A stretch of DNA of 64,000 nt, from the sequence record SRR31156797_5308. One strand, 5' to 3'. The translations under genes and the position numbers were made by a program. The notes below the pieces were generated by a model. It was not told the DNA's origin. It saw nothing but the letters and a program-made list of their open reading frames with translations, and did no database searches. Positions within the stretch are counted from its first letter, which is position 1. Each line of letters opens with the position of its first letter. Below are positions 56,989 to 62,598 of this stretch, piece by piece.

Positions 56989-57417
56989 TCAATTTTGATG
57001 AGCTGAAAACGGCAACGGAATATGCAACCGTCTGACAAAGTAGACTGCTGAAGCAAACTGGAGCAACCCTAGCAAAAAGAAAATCACATGCAAGACATTC
57101 CATTCTTGTAATAAGATGACCTGCACGATGATCCAGACAACTAAACTCATGCCTAAAAGCATTACCCCGTGGTACCCTTTGTTAAGCCGCAAGAGGAAAA
57201 CAACAATCAGATTACCCAAACCTAAGATAGCGAACAAAAACAAGCCGGGAATTAAGAAGGTCGTGAAGGGTGTTCCTTGCAGCATGGCCGCTTCCAAACC
57301 AGCAAATGTCTCCCCTTTGCTTAACGGCTCAATGCTTTTAAACGCCAATAGACTTCCTCCACAAGCGCCAACACCAATAAAGAGACACAAAAAAAGTAAC
57401 GCAAAGCGCATCTTCAT
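56989..57417 (-). CDS. Hypothetical 4-TM membrane protein
   Basis: GACGG..TPF..FLIPGLFL..WIIVQ. Confidence 0.7.
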   Translation of the reverse strand: MKMRFALLFLCLFIGVGACGGSLLAFKSIEPLSKGETFAGLEAAMLQGTPFTTFLIPGLFLFAILGLGNLIVVFLLRLNKGYHGVMLLGMSLVVWIIVQVILLQEWNVLHVIFFLLGLLQFASAVYFVRRLHIPLPFSAHQN

Positions 57418-57490
57418 TTTTCTCCACTCCTTCTTAAAACCCAACGCAACTAAAAAAATATTCTCAGTGACACATCGATTTTCTTATTCC

Positions 57491-57954: not shown

Positions 57955-58052
57955 TAGAGTTGACAGCTCTTTTCCAAACAAACTCTTGTTATCAAGCCGT
58001 AATGCATTGCTTGACTAAAGAGTATCCTGAGGAAAAGCGGCTGTCAACTCTA
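57955..58052. repeat. 98-bp imperfect palindrome (MITE-like or long hairpin)
   Basis: TAGAGTTGACAGC / GCTGTCAACTCTA ends with nested internal arms. Confidence 0.7.
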
Positions 58053-58107
58053 ATTACGAAATACTTGAAGAACAAAATTGAACTGGTTCTGTTTCTAAGC
58101 CAGGACG

Positions 58108-59031
58108 TTAATCAATCAACAACTCATTTTTTAAACGTTGGCTCGTCGTCTGTTGCTCTTCAGGCGTTACTTCTTGATAGGAAATTCCATATTCTCCTCT
58201 GAAGCCATCGCCGGTGAACCCACTGCCAGCCATTTGGTAAGACTCGACAGTCCCTAATGCTGATTGATATTGGATAAATAATTGACTCATTTGCGAAAAA
58301 GTTAGATCGGTTTCACCATTTTCTCCAATGATCGTTAGCAGATCCTGAATCCGCATCACGCTGGAAAGTGAAACTAACTCTTTTGCCAGAATCTCAGTCA
58401 CTTCTCTCTGACGGCGCTGACGGCCATAGTCACCTTCTGGATCATCCTTTCGCATACGAGTATACTGAAGCGCCTCCCAGCCATCTAAATCGAGGATCCC
58501 CTCTGGGTAATCGATTTTCTCAGCAGTAAAAGCAAATTCATTTTCAACCGTGATGCCACCAATTGCATCAACAAGATCTGCCATCCCATCCATGTTTAAG
58601 GAGAAATAATGATGGATCGGTATATCAAGATATTGTTCGACGGTTTCAATCATCATCTTTGCCCCACCAAAAGAATGGGCATGATTGATTTTATCATGGT
58701 ACCCTTGTCCCACGATTTCCACATAAGCATCTCTAGGAATACTCGTGAGGGTGGTTTTTCTTGTGGCAGGGTTCAACGTTGCTACCATGATGGTGTTGGC
58801 GCGAAAATCGGTTTTGCGACGAGAGTCATTGGCGATCCCTAACAAAAGAAGGCTTAGAGGCTCGGCATTTTCGATGACTTCCGCCTCTTCTCGTCCTTCG
58901 ATTGGACGATGGATCGAGTGGGCAACATCCTCTACTTGAAAATACACCCTAACCGCATAGACAGTTCCTGCTGAGATAATTCCGGTCAGCAATACCAGGA
59001 AAATGATTATTAGTTTTTTTGCTGTACTCAA
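58108..59031 (-). CDS. LCP (LytR-CpsA-Psr) family glycopolymer transferase
   Basis: N-terminal TM, LLLG, SIPRD, KINHA, RMRK..GDYGRQRRQ; TTG start. Confidence 0.92.
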   Translation of the reverse strand: MSTAKKLIIIFLVLLTGIISAGTVYAVRVYFQVEDVAHSIHRPIEGREEAEVIENAEPLSLLLLGIANDSRRKTDFRANTIMVATLNPATRKTTLTSIPRDAYVEIVGQGYHDKINHAHSFGGAKMMIETVEQYLDIPIHHYFSLNMDGMADLVDAIGGITVENEFAFTAEKIDYPEGILDLDGWEALQYTRMRKDDPEGDYGRQRRQREVTEILAKELVSLSSVMRIQDLLTIIGENGETDLTFSQMSQLFIQYQSALGTVESYQMAGSGFTGDGFRGEYGISYQEVTPEEQQTTSQRLKNELLID

Positions 59032-59032
59032 T

Positions 59033-59686
59033 TTATCTCCCCCTAAGTACATATTTTTTGATTGAAAAGACGAAAGCATAGGTGATATAACTGATCCCAC
59101 TTGCCAATAAAATACTTGCTAGCAAGTCGCTGGGATAGTGAACCCCAAGTAACAACCGACTCATCATAATCAGCAACAAATAGATCAATCCTAGAAATAG
59201 GGCCATGTTTTGGATAAAGTGACGCTTGCCTCTTTTGGCAGGAACTGTTTGCCCCAAGAAAAAGAGGAGAGAAATAATCAACGTGGTCGCTAATAATGTA
59301 TGTCCACTCGGAAAACTTGCTGATGCCCGTTCCATACTGTCAGCAAAATCCGGTCTCGGTCGATCAACTACTTTCTTGATCACTTGACCAACACCACTGA
59401 TCACAATCATATTCCCCATCAACCAAAGACTTTCTAACCGCTGCTTGCGCATAAATAAAATACTTGCTAACAGGAAATGAACGACAGCTATGGGAATGAT
59501 CGTAGCCGTACTGGCAAGTGGGAGAAAAAGCGATTCCACAGCAGGTGTCCGCCATTGAGGCAACTGGGAAAACAGGTTGTCGATGCTTTGGAACCAGCGC
59601 GGTTCTAATGCAACGAGGAAAAACAGCCATGCAAAACAGCTGCAGAGTATTCCGCCTACCACTCCTTTTTTTGCTGTTTTACTCAT
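59033..59686 (-). CDS. PAP2-family phosphatase (undecaprenyl-PP phosphatase-like)
   Basis: K..V.RPRP, SFPSGH, SRLLLGVHYPSD. Confidence 0.92.
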   Translation of the reverse strand: MSKTAKKGVVGGILCSCFAWLFFLVALEPRWFQSIDNLFSQLPQWRTPAVESLFLPLASTATIIPIAVVHFLLASILFMRKQRLESLWLMGNMIVISGVGQVIKKVVDRPRPDFADSMERASASFPSGHTLLATTLIISLLFFLGQTVPAKRGKRHFIQNMALFLGLIYLLLIMMSRLLLGVHYPSDLLASILLASGISYITYAFVFSIKKYVLRGR

Positions 59687-60876
59687 GTTAAGCCCCTACT
59701 TTCTTTTAATGTATACGACCTATTTTTGGCTTTTATCGGAAATTTGTCTAACCCAAAGATAATTCCCATAGCAATGCTGATCGCAATCAGAGAGGTTCCT
59801 CCTTGACTTAAGAATGGTAAGGGAATGCCGGTTAAAGGCAGCAAACCGATCGCCGCTCCGATGTTTTCAAAAATTTGAAAAACCAAACCAAACACATAGG
59901 TAATCGCAATATAGACCGATGCTTTGTTATTTGTTTTTAAAGCAGCAAAAATGATTTGATAGATCAGATAGAAATAAAGGAAGATGACTAAAGTACTTCC
60001 TAAAAAGCCATACGTTTCTCCAATGACTGTAAAGATCATATCTGACTCCCGAACCGGCACATACACCGTTGTATGGGTATCAGGTGCCCCCAATAAGCCG
60101 CCAGAACCAATCGCCCACATACTGCGGACTTGTTGGAAAGCGATGGAATCTTGGTACGCGAGTGGATCTGCCCAGGCTCTCACCCGATCCAATTGATATT
60201 GTGAAAAGTGAAGGCGAAACAACACACGATTGCCCCATTCCGTGAATACGAGTAGCAACAAAATAGCACCAAGAGCGGCAATCAAACCGATCACGACGGT
60301 CAGTATTTTCCAATGAACACCGGAAATGATGAATAAGGCACCTAACATCACGATAAACACCAAACTCGTTCCAAAGTCCCGCTGCATAAACATCAATAAA
60401 AATGTGGGTAAGCTGTATAGCAGGATCTTAGTAACATAGATCAAATCGGATTTGATTGTTCGTTCTGCTTTACGTTTCTCATAGACTAAAGTGAGATAGA
60501 CCATAAAGAGCATAAAGGCCACTTTCATAAACTCAGAAGGCTGAATCGTAAACGCACCAAATCTGATCCACCGTTTGGTGTGCGTTTGTTCAAACATCGT
60601 TTGATCGTAAAACCAATGAAGAGAGGCCATCAAACCAAGTGATAGTAAGTACAAAAGACCAGAAAAGCGGAGGAGTAAATTCGTAGGAATCAAACTCGTT
60701 ACAAAAAGAGCAATCGCCGAAAGGATACAAAAGAGGATCTGCCGAAAAACAATCCCTGAAGGATCATTGCCATCCATCACAGAAGCCTGATGTTGTACCC
60801 AGATACTTAACAAAAACAGCAGGAAAATCGGCAGCAATAAAGCATAGTTTGCTTCATGTCGTTTGAGGAACTTCAT
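59683..60876 (-). CDS. SEDS protein, RodA-like
   Basis: RWI..IQPSEFMK, QRDFGT, AIGSGG, VPVRESDMIF, TGIPLPFLSQGG. Confidence 0.92.
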   Translation of the reverse strand: MKFLKRHEANYALLLPIFLLFLLSIWVQHQASVMDGNDPSGIVFRQILFCILSAIALFVTSLIPTNLLLRFSGLLYLLSLGLMASLHWFYDQTMFEQTHTKRWIRFGAFTIQPSEFMKVAFMLFMVYLTLVYEKRKAERTIKSDLIYVTKILLYSLPTFLLMFMQRDFGTSLVFIVMLGALFIISGVHWKILTVVIGLIAALGAILLLLVFTEWGNRVLFRLHFSQYQLDRVRAWADPLAYQDSIAFQQVRSMWAIGSGGLLGAPDTHTTVYVPVRESDMIFTVIGETYGFLGSTLVIFLYFYLIYQIIFAALKTNNKASVYIAITYVFGLVFQIFENIGAAIGLLPLTGIPLPFLSQGGTSLIAISIAMGIIFGLDKFPIKAKNRSYTLKESRGLT

Positions 60877-62008
60877 TAAGTATACCCTCCTCTCGTTCTA
60901 GTTTCAGGCATAAACTGAAGGCAAATGAAAGAATAAAGTAACTGGAGCCACCATAACTAATGAATGGCAAAGGTACCCCCGTCATCGGCATCAACCCTAA
61001 AATACTGGCAATATTGATACTTGTTTGTAATAACAGCAACGTGCTGGTTCCCAATAATATTAAGCCAATCTGAGGATTTGCGATTGCCGCTGATCGTATA
61101 AACAGACGTAAAATGATTACGAATAATAAAGCGATGACAAAAATGCCGAAAATCAACCCTAATTCCTCTACTAAAACGGAGAAAATAAAATCAGTCTCTG
61201 CTACTGGTAAAAAGCCTTTCTTGGTGATGCTATTTCCTAAACCAAGGCCCGTAAGACCACCATTGAACAAAGCATAGTAGGAATGGATCATTTGGAATCC
61301 TTGATTATATGGGTCGGAAAACGGATCTCCCACTAATCGAATTCGGTTATACACATGCATAAACATGTGGGGCAATAAATCATTGTTTCCTAAAAAGAGG
61401 ATCAACATAGCAACCAAGAACAGACTGATTAATAACCCGCCAAACAAAAGAGCCGTGAGTTTAACGGGTACCTGAACCGTGGTAATCATGATAAAAGCCA
61501 AGAAAAGTAAAATCATCACGCCGGCTACTTTTGGTTGAATGAGGATCAACACACAGCACAAAAATAAAACGAAAAGCGGACGTTTCATTTCCTGCAAGGT
61601 AGTTTTTGCTGATTGAAAGTAATGAGCAAGGTATAAGACCATGCCCACATTCACGATCTCTGAGGGCTGAAATTGTATCCCTACAATCGAGACCCATCGT
61701 TGCGCTCCATTGACAGAAACACCGAAAAACGGCAAACGTGCCAATAGTAAAGTAAAGACGCCAAATGCCAACAGACCGATCGCTAAATATTTACTGAGCA
61801 GAATCTCACGCCGTGTTCGCTGAATAATGAAAAGGAGCACCCAGCTGAGTAACAGAAAGACAAGCTGACGCATAAATAAGCTTGCTGGCGGCTGATCTCT
61901 CGTTAATAAACGATAAGAACTTGCACTATAAATCATTAAAAGACCGATAAGGCTCAATAGCAAATAAGCTATGATCAGCAGCCAATCGATCTTCTTTTTT
62001 TCTATCAT
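60854..62008 (-). CDS. SEDS protein, FtsW-like
   Basis: YSAS, NGAQRW, QPSE, GLGLGNS.TK.GFLPVAETDFIF, TGVPLPFISYGGSS; start MIEKKK after GAGGAG. Confidence 0.92.
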   Translation of the reverse strand: MIEKKKIDWLLIIAYLLLSLIGLLMIYSASSYRLLTRDQPPASLFMRQLVFLLLSWVLLFIIQRTRREILLSKYLAIGLLAFGVFTLLLARLPFFGVSVNGAQRWVSIVGIQFQPSEIVNVGMVLYLAHYFQSAKTTLQEMKRPLFVLFLCCVLILIQPKVAGVMILLFLAFIMITTVQVPVKLTALLFGGLLISLFLVAMLILFLGNNDLLPHMFMHVYNRIRLVGDPFSDPYNQGFQMIHSYYALFNGGLTGLGLGNSITKKGFLPVAETDFIFSVLVEELGLIFGIFVIALLFVIILRLFIRSAAIANPQIGLILLGTSTLLLLQTSINIASILGLMPMTGVPLPFISYGGSSYFILSFAFSLCLKLEREEGILNEVPQTT

Positions 62009-62085
62009 TGCTTCCACTCCTCTTGCCTTGGAGTAGGTGTTCAGACGGTACCAGTTATTATGCCCTTTGAGCTTAGTCATCCATC

Positions 62086-62134
62086 AAAGAGAAAAGCAAA
62101 AAAGTCTCACTTCTCTTAGGACGTCAGACTTTGC
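62086..62134 (-). terminator. Riboswitch expression-platform terminator
   Basis: Minus strand GCAAAGTCTGAC...GTGAGACTTTTTGC-TTTTCTCTTT directly after the aptamer. Confidence 0.75.
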
Positions 62135-62138
62135 TAGC

Positions 62139-62306
62139 AATCTCATCGTCCGAGTTTTAGCACTATACAACGTAAAGAAAGTTGTTCCCTTTCTTAGCTA
62201 TTTTATGAAAAGCCTTAATCCGACAATTCCTGTTTTACACATTGGCGTCTTTCGACGTTTCTGCGCAATAGCTTATGTTTGTATAGGAGCCTCACCTAAC
62301 AAGGTT
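62139..62306 (-). ncRNA. M-box (ykoK leader) Mg2+-sensing riboswitch
   Basis: Minus strand GTTAGGTGAGGCTCCTATAC...AAACGTCGAAAGACGCCAAT...ACAGGAA..TCGGATTAAGG...GTATAGTGCTAAAACTCGGACGA, collinear with the B. subtilis ykoK leader; promoter TTGTAT(62355-62360)-17bp-TACCAT(62332-62337). Confidence 0.92.
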
Positions 62307-62598
62307 ATATGTTATTTTCAATCCACTATGAATGGTACCCTTCCTCGTATAAAGATACAACCCATTCTTTGTTATTTTTATTTTTCTTTAACTTTTCTTA
62401 AAGAATTTAGATATTTCGAGTAATTTCCGATATTTAAAGAAAAATCAATGGAAATCATTCGACCATCACTGGATTCCCTTCGATCATACACGTTATTAAA
62501 AAACGGTCATTTTCAAAAAAAGACAGCTCTTTTTCTAAAACTCGAAAAAGAGCTGCTTTCTTGATTTTATACTCCCGCTCTAAATATATCTGTGCCGA

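Follow-up and report, generated by a model that had tools for sequence, protein, structure and literature searches.

An M-box (ykoK) Mg2+ riboswitch aptamer lies directly ahead of four cell-wall genes, ftsW2-rodA2-PAP2-lcp, on the minus strand of the 64-kb window (the whole stretch of DNA that was analyzed), and we estimate a probability of about 0.7 that it is a genuine "off"-type M-box gating this accessory wall operon by transcription attenuation. The organism is a member of the Enterococcus casseliflavus group, and its SEDS, PAP2, and LCP genes constitute a second, non-essential set of wall-building genes beside the housekeeping copies. The M-box family and the activity of FtsW2/RodA2 are already known. 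Our literature search returned no publication linking M-boxes to these cell-wall genes, nor any paper of the kind mentioned in the initial annotation, reporting M-boxes ahead of genes for cell division.

The single gathering-level cmscan match in the whole window was to RF00380, at 62135-62310 on the minus strand, scoring 156.6 bits against a cut-off of 44 (E 6.8e-36) and covering the full length of the model (positions 1-169 of 169). The same match was found in the nearest genome (G001). This search with the ykoK model, which the initial annotation had proposed, places the aptamer in RF00380 by score, the curated gathering score being exceeded over the entire model. A promoter was predicted from the sequence at 62332-62360 on the same strand, with a -35 element TTGTAT (62355-62360), a 17-nt spacer, and a -10 element TACCAT (62332-62337). 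It was absent from the consensus-scan list because it matches the consensus at 8 of 12 positions; its TTGT (-35) and TAnnnT (-10) positions were invariant in 9/9 aligned leaders. Promoter, aptamer, terminator, and ribosome-binding site were all kept in nine leaders from nine species, and the previously described order of promoter, M-box, terminator, and four genes was borne out by cmscan, the leader alignment, and the gene calls. The upstream neighbor, mutS2, ends in its own strong terminator (62523-62556).

The first gene, SEDS1 (60854-62008, minus strand, as are the following three), encodes an FtsW2-like peptidoglycan polymerase of 384 aa (PF01098, 257 bits). Its start was listed at 62080 by the ORF lister, and we preferred the ATG at 62008 because of the AGAGGAG ribosome-binding site found there, which is conserved in relatives. 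SEDS2 (59683-60876) encodes a RodA2-like peptidoglycan polymerase of 397 aa (PF01098, 233 bits) and is followed by genes for a PAP2-family lipid phosphatase of 217 aa (59033-59686; PF01569, 74.8 bits) and an LCP (LytR-CpsA-Psr) glycopolymer ligase (58108-59100; PF03816, 153.3 bits), in agreement with the gene families first named for this locus. For the LCP gene, the longest ORF begins at GTG 59100; its start is likely the TTG at 59031, giving 307 aa, with GGGGGAG located 5 nt before it. The genes are tightly packed and probably co-transcribed: the reading frames of SEDS1 and SEDS2 have 23 nt in common, and the SEDS2 ATG is preceded by GGAGG; SEDS2 and PAP2 share an ATGA (4-nt overlap); and a gap of 1 nt separates the PAP2 stop from the LCP TTG. 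PAP2 and LCP were encoded by one fused ORF in 9 of the 24 family loci fetched. No terminator was found 3' of the LCP gene (z 0.23), and the transcription unit may run on into a GNAT gene. The RNA-library runs containing the stretch are contigs, one spanning 70 kb, and hence are uninformative on transcription. As originally claimed, the operon holds neither a Mg2+ transporter nor a class B penicillin-binding protein (bPBP); the four PBP_dimer genes of G001 are on other contigs or elsewhere, outside the operon.

PAP2 enzymes carry the catalytic motifs KX6RP, PSGH, and SRX5HX3D, and all three were intact in the PAP2 protein, where they read KKVVDRPRP, PSGH, and SRLLLGVHYPSD. NCBIfam matches were weak (SepP 36.4 vs. 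a cut-off of 250, PgpB 39.9 vs. 261), such that the protein scored below the undecaprenyl-diphosphate phosphatase equivalog of the BcrC/SepP type; judging from its context, its substrate is probably undecaprenyl diphosphate. The LCP protein exceeded the TIGR00350 cut-off (133.9 vs. 62.3). Its identity with TagU itself was ruled out by the TagU equivalog (284.9 vs. a cut-off of 441).

Alignment of the nine leaders and folding located an intrinsic terminator at 62091-62132 (minus strand), consisting of arms 62123-62132 and 62101-62110 followed by a U-tract. The helix was 95.5% paired across the nine leaders, with two pairs changed on both sides, and its covariation score was reached by 0/500 shuffles. 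In the window, this hairpin is weak (-11.9 kcal/mol, z -1.04) and has a G.G mismatch, common to the terminators of the window and its two closest relatives, with 29/200 shuffles equally good, so that attenuation may be leaky in this lineage. A predicted antiterminator (62119-62151, minus strand), drawn from the minimum free energy (MFE) fold and the alignment, pairs the aptamer P1 3' strand (62139-62151) with the terminator 5' arm (62119-62130). This pairing formed in the MFE structure when the platform was folded with the P1 5' strand left out, and 87.9% of its cells were paired across the nine leaders, with one pair changed on both sides and a covariation score reached by 19/500 shuffles, which supports it weakly. 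The leader therefore has the expression platform expected of RF00380, a terminator opposed by an antiterminator that uses the P1 3' strand, with a weak hairpin in the window. Unrelated and stronger terminators occupied the equivalent leader position at two other family loci, L113 (z -3.97) and L088 (z -2.82), and terminators of unrelated sequence stood 3' of the aptamer in E. faecium-like, E. hirae-like, and genus g13 leaders.

The weak, mismatched terminator could also indicate that the operon belongs to the envelope-stress response, whereby a CroRS/CesRK-type system acting at the promoter would be the main driver and the M-box, its terminator decayed, would add little. Consistent with this, ftsW2-rodA2 of E. 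faecalis is reported to be CroR-dependent, induced through CroS/R and also by FtsW depletion (PMC12724132); hence, Mg2+ is neither the sole possible nor a necessary input. Likewise, Listeria monocytogenes lmo2689-lmo2686 is part of the CesR regulon and inducible by beta-lactams and moenomycin, and a Plmo2689-lacZ fusion, which may or may not include the leader, showed unchanged activity with MgSO4 or EDTA (PMC6686043). However, the aptamer hardly departs from the consensus (156.6 bits), and the near-invariance of the leader in nine species points to selection acting on the RNA. In sister species the terminator stem is perfect, and the U-tract and its A-tract extension are kept. We consider it unlikely that the M-box is of so little consequence, and Mg2+-dependent attenuation is our preferred reading.

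Neither polymerase is a housekeeping enzyme. SEDS1 scored 268.9 against the 337.5 cut-off of the ftsW equivalog (TIGR02614), and SEDS2 scored 216.7 against the 336.7 cut-off of the rodA equivalog (TIGR02210) and also fell below that of ftsW. In G001, the housekeeping FtsW is a separate gene, adjoining a pyruvate-carboxylase-like ORF (judged by eye), and its product is 33% identical to SEDS1, while the housekeeping RodA is 40% identical to SEDS2. A quick tree resolved two deep clades (SH-aLRT 100 each), placing SEDS1 in the FtsW clade with FtsW2-type rows and SEDS2 in the RodA clade with RodA2-type rows. The window thus encodes an adjacent accessory pair of the enterococcal FtsW2/RodA2 type, distinct from the housekeeping copies. 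Both are members of the SEDS family, as D273 of SEDS1 aligned to the HTDF Asp of Thermus thermophilus RodA and D279 of SEDS2 to the catalytic ECL4 Asp, the reference residue being T. thermophilus RodA D255 as numbered from the alignment. This column was Asp in 147/147 sequences (the window and 146 of the best 150 representatives).

SEDS2 keeps the QRD Asp (Asp167), as seen in its alignment to D159 and the catalytic-site region of E. coli RodA. SEDS1 has QPKVAG at residues 158-163 instead of QPDxG, as first noticed in the initial annotation, with Lys160 at the position of the QPD Asp. The same QPK was present in 12/12 rows of the SEDS1 clade, window included, and at two FtsW2 loci, one of the E. 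faecalis type (G002/L090) and the other G031/L091. Across the window and 146 of the best 150 representatives (147 sequences), this column was mostly D (122), the alternatives being N (16), H (7), and K (2). The suggestion that this FtsW may be atypical therefore holds for the rarity of Lys (2/147 in this set) but not as a mark of inactivity, since E. faecalis-type FtsW2, active in vitro, also has QPK.

The PAP2 family is not known to need a metal, and BacA/UppP needs one. Together with Lys160, this permits a more specific reading, in which the operon would be a Mg2+-sparing replacement set comprising cation-free versions of Mg2+-requiring wall enzymes: Lys160 of FtsW2 would replace the metal beside the catalytic Asp, allowing lipid II to be polymerized without divalent cation, a metal-independent PAP2 would take over from the housekeeping undecaprenyl-diphosphate phosphatase, and the M-box would switch the operon on when the housekeeping Mg2+-dependent enzymes fail. 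The constancy of QPK in the SEDS1 clade and its rarity elsewhere are consistent with such a role, and the QPK position is in ECL3, beside residues at which P196T, L198I, and G199A make E. coli FtsW dominant-negative (PMC8765783). E. coli RodA D159 is included with D262 in a modeled active-site cluster (PMC10449877). Streptococcus thermophilus FtsW is reported to need divalent cations and to lose activity with EDTA, and neutralization of the lipid II diphosphate was suggested as the role of the cation (10.1101/358663). Riboswitch-run cofactor-independent isozymes are also known, namely "isozymes of B12-dependent enzymes" (PMC3766115). However, QPK occurs at the two FtsW2 loci G002/L090 and G031/L091, which lack an M-box, whereas QPN is found in the M-box-controlled FtsW2-like protein of g13, and the Asp is retained in RodA2. 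Furthermore, E. coli RodA-PBP2, with Asp, is EDTA-insensitive (PMC10449877), and so the Asp is not established as a metal ligand, and E. faecalis FtsW2 was assayed solely at 20 mM MgCl2 (PMC12724132). A Mg2+-sparing function is thus improbable in our view, and it would refine rather than exclude the M-box attenuation model. If true, the operon would be a Mg2+ counterpart of zinc-free ribosomal protein paralogs and of the B12-independent isozymes that B12 riboswitches control.

The association of M-box and FtsW2 is the rule in the family and not an accident of one genome. Our survey, of a kind also suggested in the initial annotation, covered 134 Enterococcaceae genomes, 47 of which had an FtsW2 orthologue at at least 44% identity, and an M-box was directly upstream in 44 of these 47 (39 with a same-strand M-box listed no more than ~300 nt upstream, plus five found by cmscan). 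Among named Enterococcus loci, the proportion was 10/11. The 44 M-boxes were distributed across four genus-level groups, scored 145-165 bits, and preceded four different gene orders, one headed by LCP, each with its own terminator. In genus g13, the order was M-box-LCP-FtsW2-like-RodA2-like, as checked by sequence at two loci and by coordinates at nine more, of 26 genomes. The M-box was missing at three of the 47 orthologue loci (G031/L015, G002, and G003). Of these, G002 does have an M-box ~3 kb from its M-box-less ftsW2-rodA2 pair, where it precedes a P-type ATPase gene. This proximity is what might be seen if the M-box were a historical hitch-hiker, left from a lost Mg2+ transporter beside the SEDS pair and conferring Mg2+ control without adaptive meaning. 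In line with that history, a Mg2+-type ATPase gene heads the Listeria operon (mgtA-like-ftsW2-rodA3; PMC6686043), and M-boxes are "almost always" upstream of the Mg2+ transporter genes corA, mgtE, or mgtA (Winkler laboratory, PMC4072509). Retention in 44/47 loci and four genus-level groups at 145-165 bits, ahead of four gene orders that each have their own terminator, is a durability not expected of a relic, however, and makes a hitch-hiker very improbable.

According to the M-box attenuation model, ample cytoplasmic Mg2+ would compact the aptamer, the P1 helix would hold the antiterminator strand, and the hairpin at 62101-62132 with its U-tract would end transcription ~80 nt short of the first start codon. 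Under Mg2+ scarcity, the P1 3' strand would pair with the terminator 5' arm and the operon would be read. By analogy with E. faecalis, the FtsW2 and RodA2 polymerases would work with housekeeping class B PBPs, the membrane phosphatase PAP2 would regenerate undecaprenyl phosphate from the diphosphate released by the polymerases outside the membrane, and the LCP ligase would attach phosphate-rich, cation-binding polymers to new peptidoglycan. The operon may represent a "wall-remodelling kit" of presumed benefit at low Mg2+. A physiological connection between Mg2+ and the wall has long been seen, with wall mutants rescued by Mg2+ and division frequency altered by Mg2+, and M-box control would tie wall synthesis in Gram-positive cocci to cytoplasmic Mg2+ through a concrete molecular mechanism, one extending across most enterococci. 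While M-boxes are usually seen as regulators of Mg2+ import, here one precedes genes whose products would polymerize peptidoglycan, recycle the carrier lipid, and attach polymers, and it may be the missing input for the accessory FtsW2/RodA2 pair, whose inducing conditions are partly known. In related work, B. subtilis division is limited by Mg2+ limitation and undecaprenyl phosphate supply (10.1101/2022.10.01.510448), and an Asp of Cps2A coordinates Mg2+ at the lipid head group (PMC7831098).

With the B. subtilis mgtE (ykoK) M-box, the leader shares the aptamer family (RF00380, full-length match) and the arrangement of an aptamer followed by an intrinsic terminator with a competing antiterminator, but its targets are two SEDS genes, PAP2, and LCP and not a Mg2+ transporter. 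An unexpected M-box target was likewise used to predict function in Clostridium acetobutylicum, where an M-box precedes the Nramp-related NrmT (PMC4072509). NrmT proved to be a Mg2+ transporter, whereas the established activities of SEDS, PAP2, and LCP proteins are other than transport. In Listeria, an M-box presumably precedes lmo2689, a placement for which our literature search found no published report. The L. monocytogenes lmo2689-lmo2686 operon (Mg2+-type ATPase, FtsW2, RodA3, unknown) resembles that of the window in combining an accessory FtsW and RodA in one operon tied to Mg2+ biology, and differs in having the P-type ATPase gene first and a documented induction by CesRK; its expression in rich medium is minimal, and the bacterium can do without it (PMC6686043).

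Judged by sequence, the SEDS pair of the window corresponds to E. faecalis FtsW2 (OG1RF_11070) and RodA2 (OG1RF_11071), also an adjacent FtsW-like and RodA-like accessory pair. The G002 pair is 47% identical to that of the window, and its conserved Asp residues, at 275 and 281, have the numbers published for E. faecalis FtsW2/RodA2 (PMC12724132). Unlike the window, this E. faecalis-type locus has no M-box upstream and no PAP2 or LCP downstream. In that study, FtsW2 and RodA2 showed glycosyltransferase activity, were recovered together with the housekeeping PbpB and PbpA on purification, and had a low basal expression in standard medium; its text contains neither "riboswitch" nor "magnesium" (PMC12724132).

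SEDS1 is also, by sequence comparison, the counterpart of ftsW in the ftsW-psr(lcpA)-pbp5 operon of E. faecium and E. hirae, sharing 49% identity with the E. faecium FtsW cluster P0099 (387 aa). At two loci (L113 and L114) with FtsW 97-98% identical to P0099, the order was M-box-ftsW-LCP(294 aa)-bPBP(678 aa), and the order M-box-ftsW-LCP-bPBP was shared by loci whose FtsW is 98.7% identical to an E. hirae protein (L092) or 95.5% identical to an E. durans protein (L093). In these E. faecium-, E. hirae-, and E. durans-like lineages, therefore, the homologous operon behind the same M-box leader is ftsW-psr-pbp5, bPBP included. As pbp5 is the penicillin-resistance gene of the E. faecium group, Mg2+ availability could matter when beta-lactam susceptibility is tested and within host niches. 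A polycistronic ftsW-lcpA-pbp5 mRNA was reported in E. hirae and E. faecium (PMC5059904), and the publications examined on this operon do not mention a riboswitch, with neither "riboswitch" nor "magnesium" occurring in PMC11077988 and no "magnesium" in PMC5059904. The operon of the window differs from ftsW-psr-pbp5 in having RodA2 and PAP2 and no pbp5, and the Psr-type LCP is only ~30% identical to its LCP.

On the minus strand, the M-box aptamer proposed ahead of the operon in the initial annotation was borne out by the Rfam covariance model. RF00380 (ykoK) was matched at 62135-62310 over all 169 model positions with 156.6 bits (cut-off 44); this was the sole gathering-level Rfam match found by cmscan in the 64-kb window. 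Between the aptamer and mutS2's own strong terminator (62523-62556), upstream of the operon, a putative promoter was read from the sequence on the same strand (-35 TTGTAT, 62355-62360; 17-nt spacer; -10 TACCAT, 62332-62337). This promoter was absent from the list of a consensus promoter scan; its TTGT and TAnnnT positions were invariant in all nine aligned leaders. Across these leaders, from nine species, the aptamer was nearly invariant. On the 3' side of the aptamer, a leader hairpin (minus strand, arms 62123-62132 and 62101-62110) is followed by a U-tract. About 80 nt beyond it, the ATG at 62008 lies behind its ribosome-binding site, AGAGGAG.

The terminator helix was paired in 95.5% of cells across the nine leaders, with compensatory change at two pairs (one from U-A to C-G, the other from U-A to A-U); its covariation score was reached by none of 500 shuffles, and shifting the 3' partners abolished pairing. 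When the platform was folded without the 5' strand of P1, the P1 3' strand (62139-62151) paired with the terminator's 5' arm (62119-62130). This helix is the predicted antiterminator, for which comparative support was weak (87.9% paired, score reached in 19 of 500 shuffles). In the window and its two closest relatives a G.G mismatch interrupts the terminator stem, and 29 of 200 shuffles folded at least as well as the window's hairpin (-11.9 kcal/mol). Unrelated, stronger terminators occupy the equivalent spot in an E. faecium-like locus (L113, z -3.97), whose hairpin recurs in an E. hirae-like leader, and in a locus of the further genus g13 (L088, z -2.82). Since the leader elements are conserved but the window terminator is weak and mismatched, the layout is that of an ordinary 'off' M-box, with attenuation possibly leaky in this lineage. 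Nine internal terminator-like matches, against 4.9 +/- 2.2 expected, all lie within ORFs and were dismissed as chance.

Eighteen RNA-labelled public runs contain this stretch, every one as contigs. Among the four examined, one 70-kb contig spans everything and is therefore DNA-like rather than transcript evidence; the others break within the aptamer, likely because of paralogous M-boxes. The 18 libraries, with near-identical sequence over 58000-62400 (61-90% of sampled words), are mostly labelled as ant metagenomes, and one as a bird metagenome.

All four genes are on the minus strand: SEDS1, FtsW2-like (60854-62008; PF01098, 257 bits), SEDS2, RodA2-like (59683-60876; PF01098, 233 bits), a PAP2 lipid phosphatase (59033-59686; PF01569, 74.8 bits), and an LCP ligase (longest ORF 58108-59100; PF03816, 153 bits). 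None of the four reached its NCBIfam equivalog cut-off (FtsW, RodA, SepP/PgpB, TagU), and we therefore treat all four products as paralogues of the named enzymes. The tight packing described in the initial annotation held: the last 23 nt of SEDS1 lie within SEDS2, whose ATG is preceded by GGAGG, the end of SEDS2 and the start of PAP2 share ATGA, and a single nucleotide separates the PAP2 stop from a TTG at 59031. This TTG, with GGGGGAG 5 nt upstream, is the likely LCP start. The motifs that define PAP2 phosphatases, KX6RP, PSGH and SRX5HX3D, are present. No convincing terminator was found 3' of the LCP gene by terminator scan (fold z 0.23). The 200-nt gap between the LCP and GNAT genes holds a 16-nt inverted repeat (57952-57967/58040-58055; 94% complementary, 72 nt between arms), one arm of which contains a perfect TTGACA. 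Further along, at 56989-57444 (minus strand), a 151-aa ORF that matched neither Pfam nor NCBIfam occupies the same position, between GNAT and AI-2E transporter genes, in relatives (44-86% identity).

SEDS1 is 97% identical to an E. innesii protein and 95% to an E. casseliflavus protein. In the nearest genome, G001, which has 86% of sampled words in common with the window, SEDS1 is identical. This genome encodes four SEDS proteins; beyond the operon pair, there is one RodA-like (QND, VYVPVRESDMIFSV) and one FtsW-like (YPD), the gene for the latter adjoining an ORF that by eye resembles pyruvate carboxylase. SEDS1 is 33% identical to the housekeeping FtsW of G001 and SEDS2 40% to its housekeeping RodA, and in a quick maximum-likelihood tree SEDS1 fell within the FtsW clade and SEDS2 within that of RodA, both clades having 100 SH-aLRT support. 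Four genes of class B PBP (bPBP) type were found in G001, none on the contig carrying the operon. Besides the operon's M-box, G001 has one ahead of a P-type ATPase gene and a weak third (C88:67256-67426, 46.2 bits, barely over the cut-off). The weak match, possibly degenerate or fortuitous, has a UDP-GlcNAc 2-epimerase gene on one side and, on the other, a gene of the phage-integrase family, the start of which overlaps the 3' end of the match.

QPKVAG in place of the usual QPDxG, noted from the sequence alone, is indeed present in SEDS1. A search of 1.84 billion proteins supplied the best 150 representatives; four shorter than 330 aa were dropped and the other 146 were aligned with the window protein. 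In these 147 sequences the column of Lys160 held Asp in 122, Asn in 16, His in seven and Lys in two, and the catalytic Asp was conserved in all 147. Asp (within QPD or EPD) stands at this position in RodA of T. thermophilus and E. coli (D152 and D159, counted along the alignments) and in P. aeruginosa FtsW. Lys was found in all 12 rows of the SEDS1 clade, window included, and also in the M-box-less loci of two other Enterococcaceae genomes, G002 and G031; the same column held Asn in FtsW-like proteins of g13 and Vagococcus, and Asp in housekeeping FtsW and every RodA-type protein. Lys160 would correspond to D197 of E. coli FtsW, between P196 and L198; P196T, L198I and G199A are dominant-negative there (PMC8765783), and D159 of E. 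coli RodA lies within the modelled active-site cluster (PMC10449877). A divalent cation is required by S. thermophilus FtsW, according to one report (10.1101/358663), and is not required by E. coli RodA-PBP2 (PMC10449877). With a Mg2+ riboswitch ahead of the operon, it is attractive to suppose that Lys160 substitutes for the metal in FtsW2; the distribution of the residue does not support this, because Lys occurs without an M-box and Asn occurs with one.

The synteny survey suggested in the initial annotation placed an M-box directly upstream of 44 of 47 FtsW2 orthologues in the family. At least one M-box was present in 126 of 134 Enterococcaceae genomes, with as many as seven in one genome, and a SEDS1 orthologue (at least 44% identity; next-best matches at most 41%) was found in 47. 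Comparison of coordinate tables, using 150 of 314 family M-box matches, put an M-box at most about 300 nt upstream, and on the same strand, in 39 of the 47 among the matches listed, and cmscan of fetched DNA added five (L108, L109, L112, L113, L114). The three remaining loci were those of G031, whose sole M-box lies elsewhere, G002, with none upstream, and G003, in which cmscan found none at E <=0.01 upstream of the orthologue. Among 11 named Enterococcus loci fetched via SEDS1, 10 had an M-box directly upstream (148-158 bits), the exception being Enterococcus sp. DIV0210g. Eleven Vagococcus loci were left out of the orthologue count because their identity is only 36-40% and they fall with housekeeping FtsW; none of the 11 had an M-box. 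One orthologue locus, L109 (genome G004), carries a divergent pair of full M-boxes (279-445, minus; 1053-1220, plus), one of which faces an FtsW2 gene that stands alone, the other facing genes beyond the fetched stretch.

In g13 an FtsW-like gene 38-40% identical to SEDS1 has an M-box 1.2-1.4 kb upstream; two loci read by sequence had the order M-box, LCP (308 aa), FtsW2-like, RodA2-like, and among the matches listed, coordinates showed this spacing in nine more of the genus's 26 genomes. These counts and the 44 of 47 represent conservation among related genomes and not independent events. The differing gene orders and unrelated terminators argue for more than one origin, or for rearrangement under selection.

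Gene content behind the M-box varied among 24 loci from family genomes (L092-L115). FtsW2 and RodA2 were followed by a single ORF of 521-542 aa in nine and by an LCP of about 298 aa in six, FtsW and LCP by an ORF of 678-695 aa in seven (in one, L095, the LCP frame is broken into two short ORFs), FtsW2 stood alone in one, and one had the SEDS pair without an M-box. Pfam scans of two of the 521-542-aa ORFs identified PAP2 fused to LCP, a fusion common to many enterococci (L096-L104 and the named loci L016-L018). The tblastn coordinates placed PAP2 and LCP in one frame in the mundtii group and as separate abutting genes in different frames in the casseliflavus/gallinarum group. The fusion argues that phosphatase and ligase act together with the polymerases. 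Two scanned 678-695-aa ORFs comprised MecA_N, PBP_dimer and Transpeptidase domains; another three share 78-79% identity with one of these, and the last two were assigned by size and position only.

Direct observation supplies, for the mechanism we propose, the conserved RNA elements, the gene families and their intact catalytic motifs; all of its physiology is inferred. Scarce cytoplasmic Mg2+ would open the aptamer, allowing the antiterminator to form and transcription to read through. Read-through would supply additional FtsW- and RodA-type polymerases working with resident bPBPs, their activity and partners being taken by analogy from E. faecalis homologues, together with carrier-lipid recycling on the outer face and ligation of anionic polymers. 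Work on B. subtilis cites older data that UDP-MurNAc-pentapeptide accumulates under Mg2+ limitation, and reports that overexpressed uppS or bcrC removes the effect of Mg2+ on cell length (10.1101/2022.10.01.510448). LCP enzymes bind Mg2+ at the lipid diphosphate (PMC7831098).

No paper tying an M-box or magnesium riboswitch to FtsW, RodA, psr or pbp5 was found in the full-text literature, a corpus with most subscription journals outside it, and SEDS targets may already be listed in earlier M-box papers, in supplements or in databases such as RegPrecise. Because coverage is partial and databases may already flag these aptamers, we describe a known riboswitch class with an apparently new, conserved, non-transport regulon, and do not claim priority over all earlier observers.

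One close characterized system is in E. faecalis, where, according to one report, two extra adjacent SEDS genes encode FtsW2 and RodA2. Both proteins polymerise lipid II in vitro, FtsW2 in the absence of a bPBP, and they co-purify by preference with PbpB and PbpA; they are CroS/R-induced, expressed at low levels and dispensable in standard medium (PMC12724132). The words 'riboswitch' and 'magnesium' do not occur in its text. The M-box-less locus of G002 was taken as the E. faecalis type because its conserved Asp residues have the numbers given in that report, 275 and 281. About 3 kb downstream of this ftsW2-rodA2 pair, beyond two opposite-strand ORFs, a 161-bit M-box precedes a P-type ATPase gene (L090, 7150-7320).

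The related Listeria operon, lmo2689 (Mg2+-type ATPase)-ftsW2-rodA3-lmo2686, is under CesRK, and its promoter fusion was unaffected by MgSO4 or EDTA (PMC6686043). For E. faecium, a 387-aa protein cluster named for the species (P0099) is 49% identical to SEDS1, and the FtsW of the ftsW-psr-pbp5 region is likewise 387 aa (PMC11077988). 'Riboswitch' does not occur in PMC11077988, nor 'magnesium' in PMC11077988 or PMC5059904. FtsW of the E. faecium-like L113 and L114 is 97-98% identical to P0099, that of L092 98.7% to an E. hirae protein and that of L093 95.5% to an E. durans protein, and in all four loci an M-box (145-153 bits) immediately precedes the gene. In seven loci (L092-L095, L112-L114), whose FtsW is 95-99% identical to E. 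faecium, E. hirae and E. durans proteins, an M-box and a strong terminator precede genes for ftsW, a Psr-type LCP and a PBP5-type low-affinity bPBP; in E. hirae and E. faecium, ftsW-lcpA(psr)-pbp5 is an operon with a polycistronic mRNA (PMC5059904).
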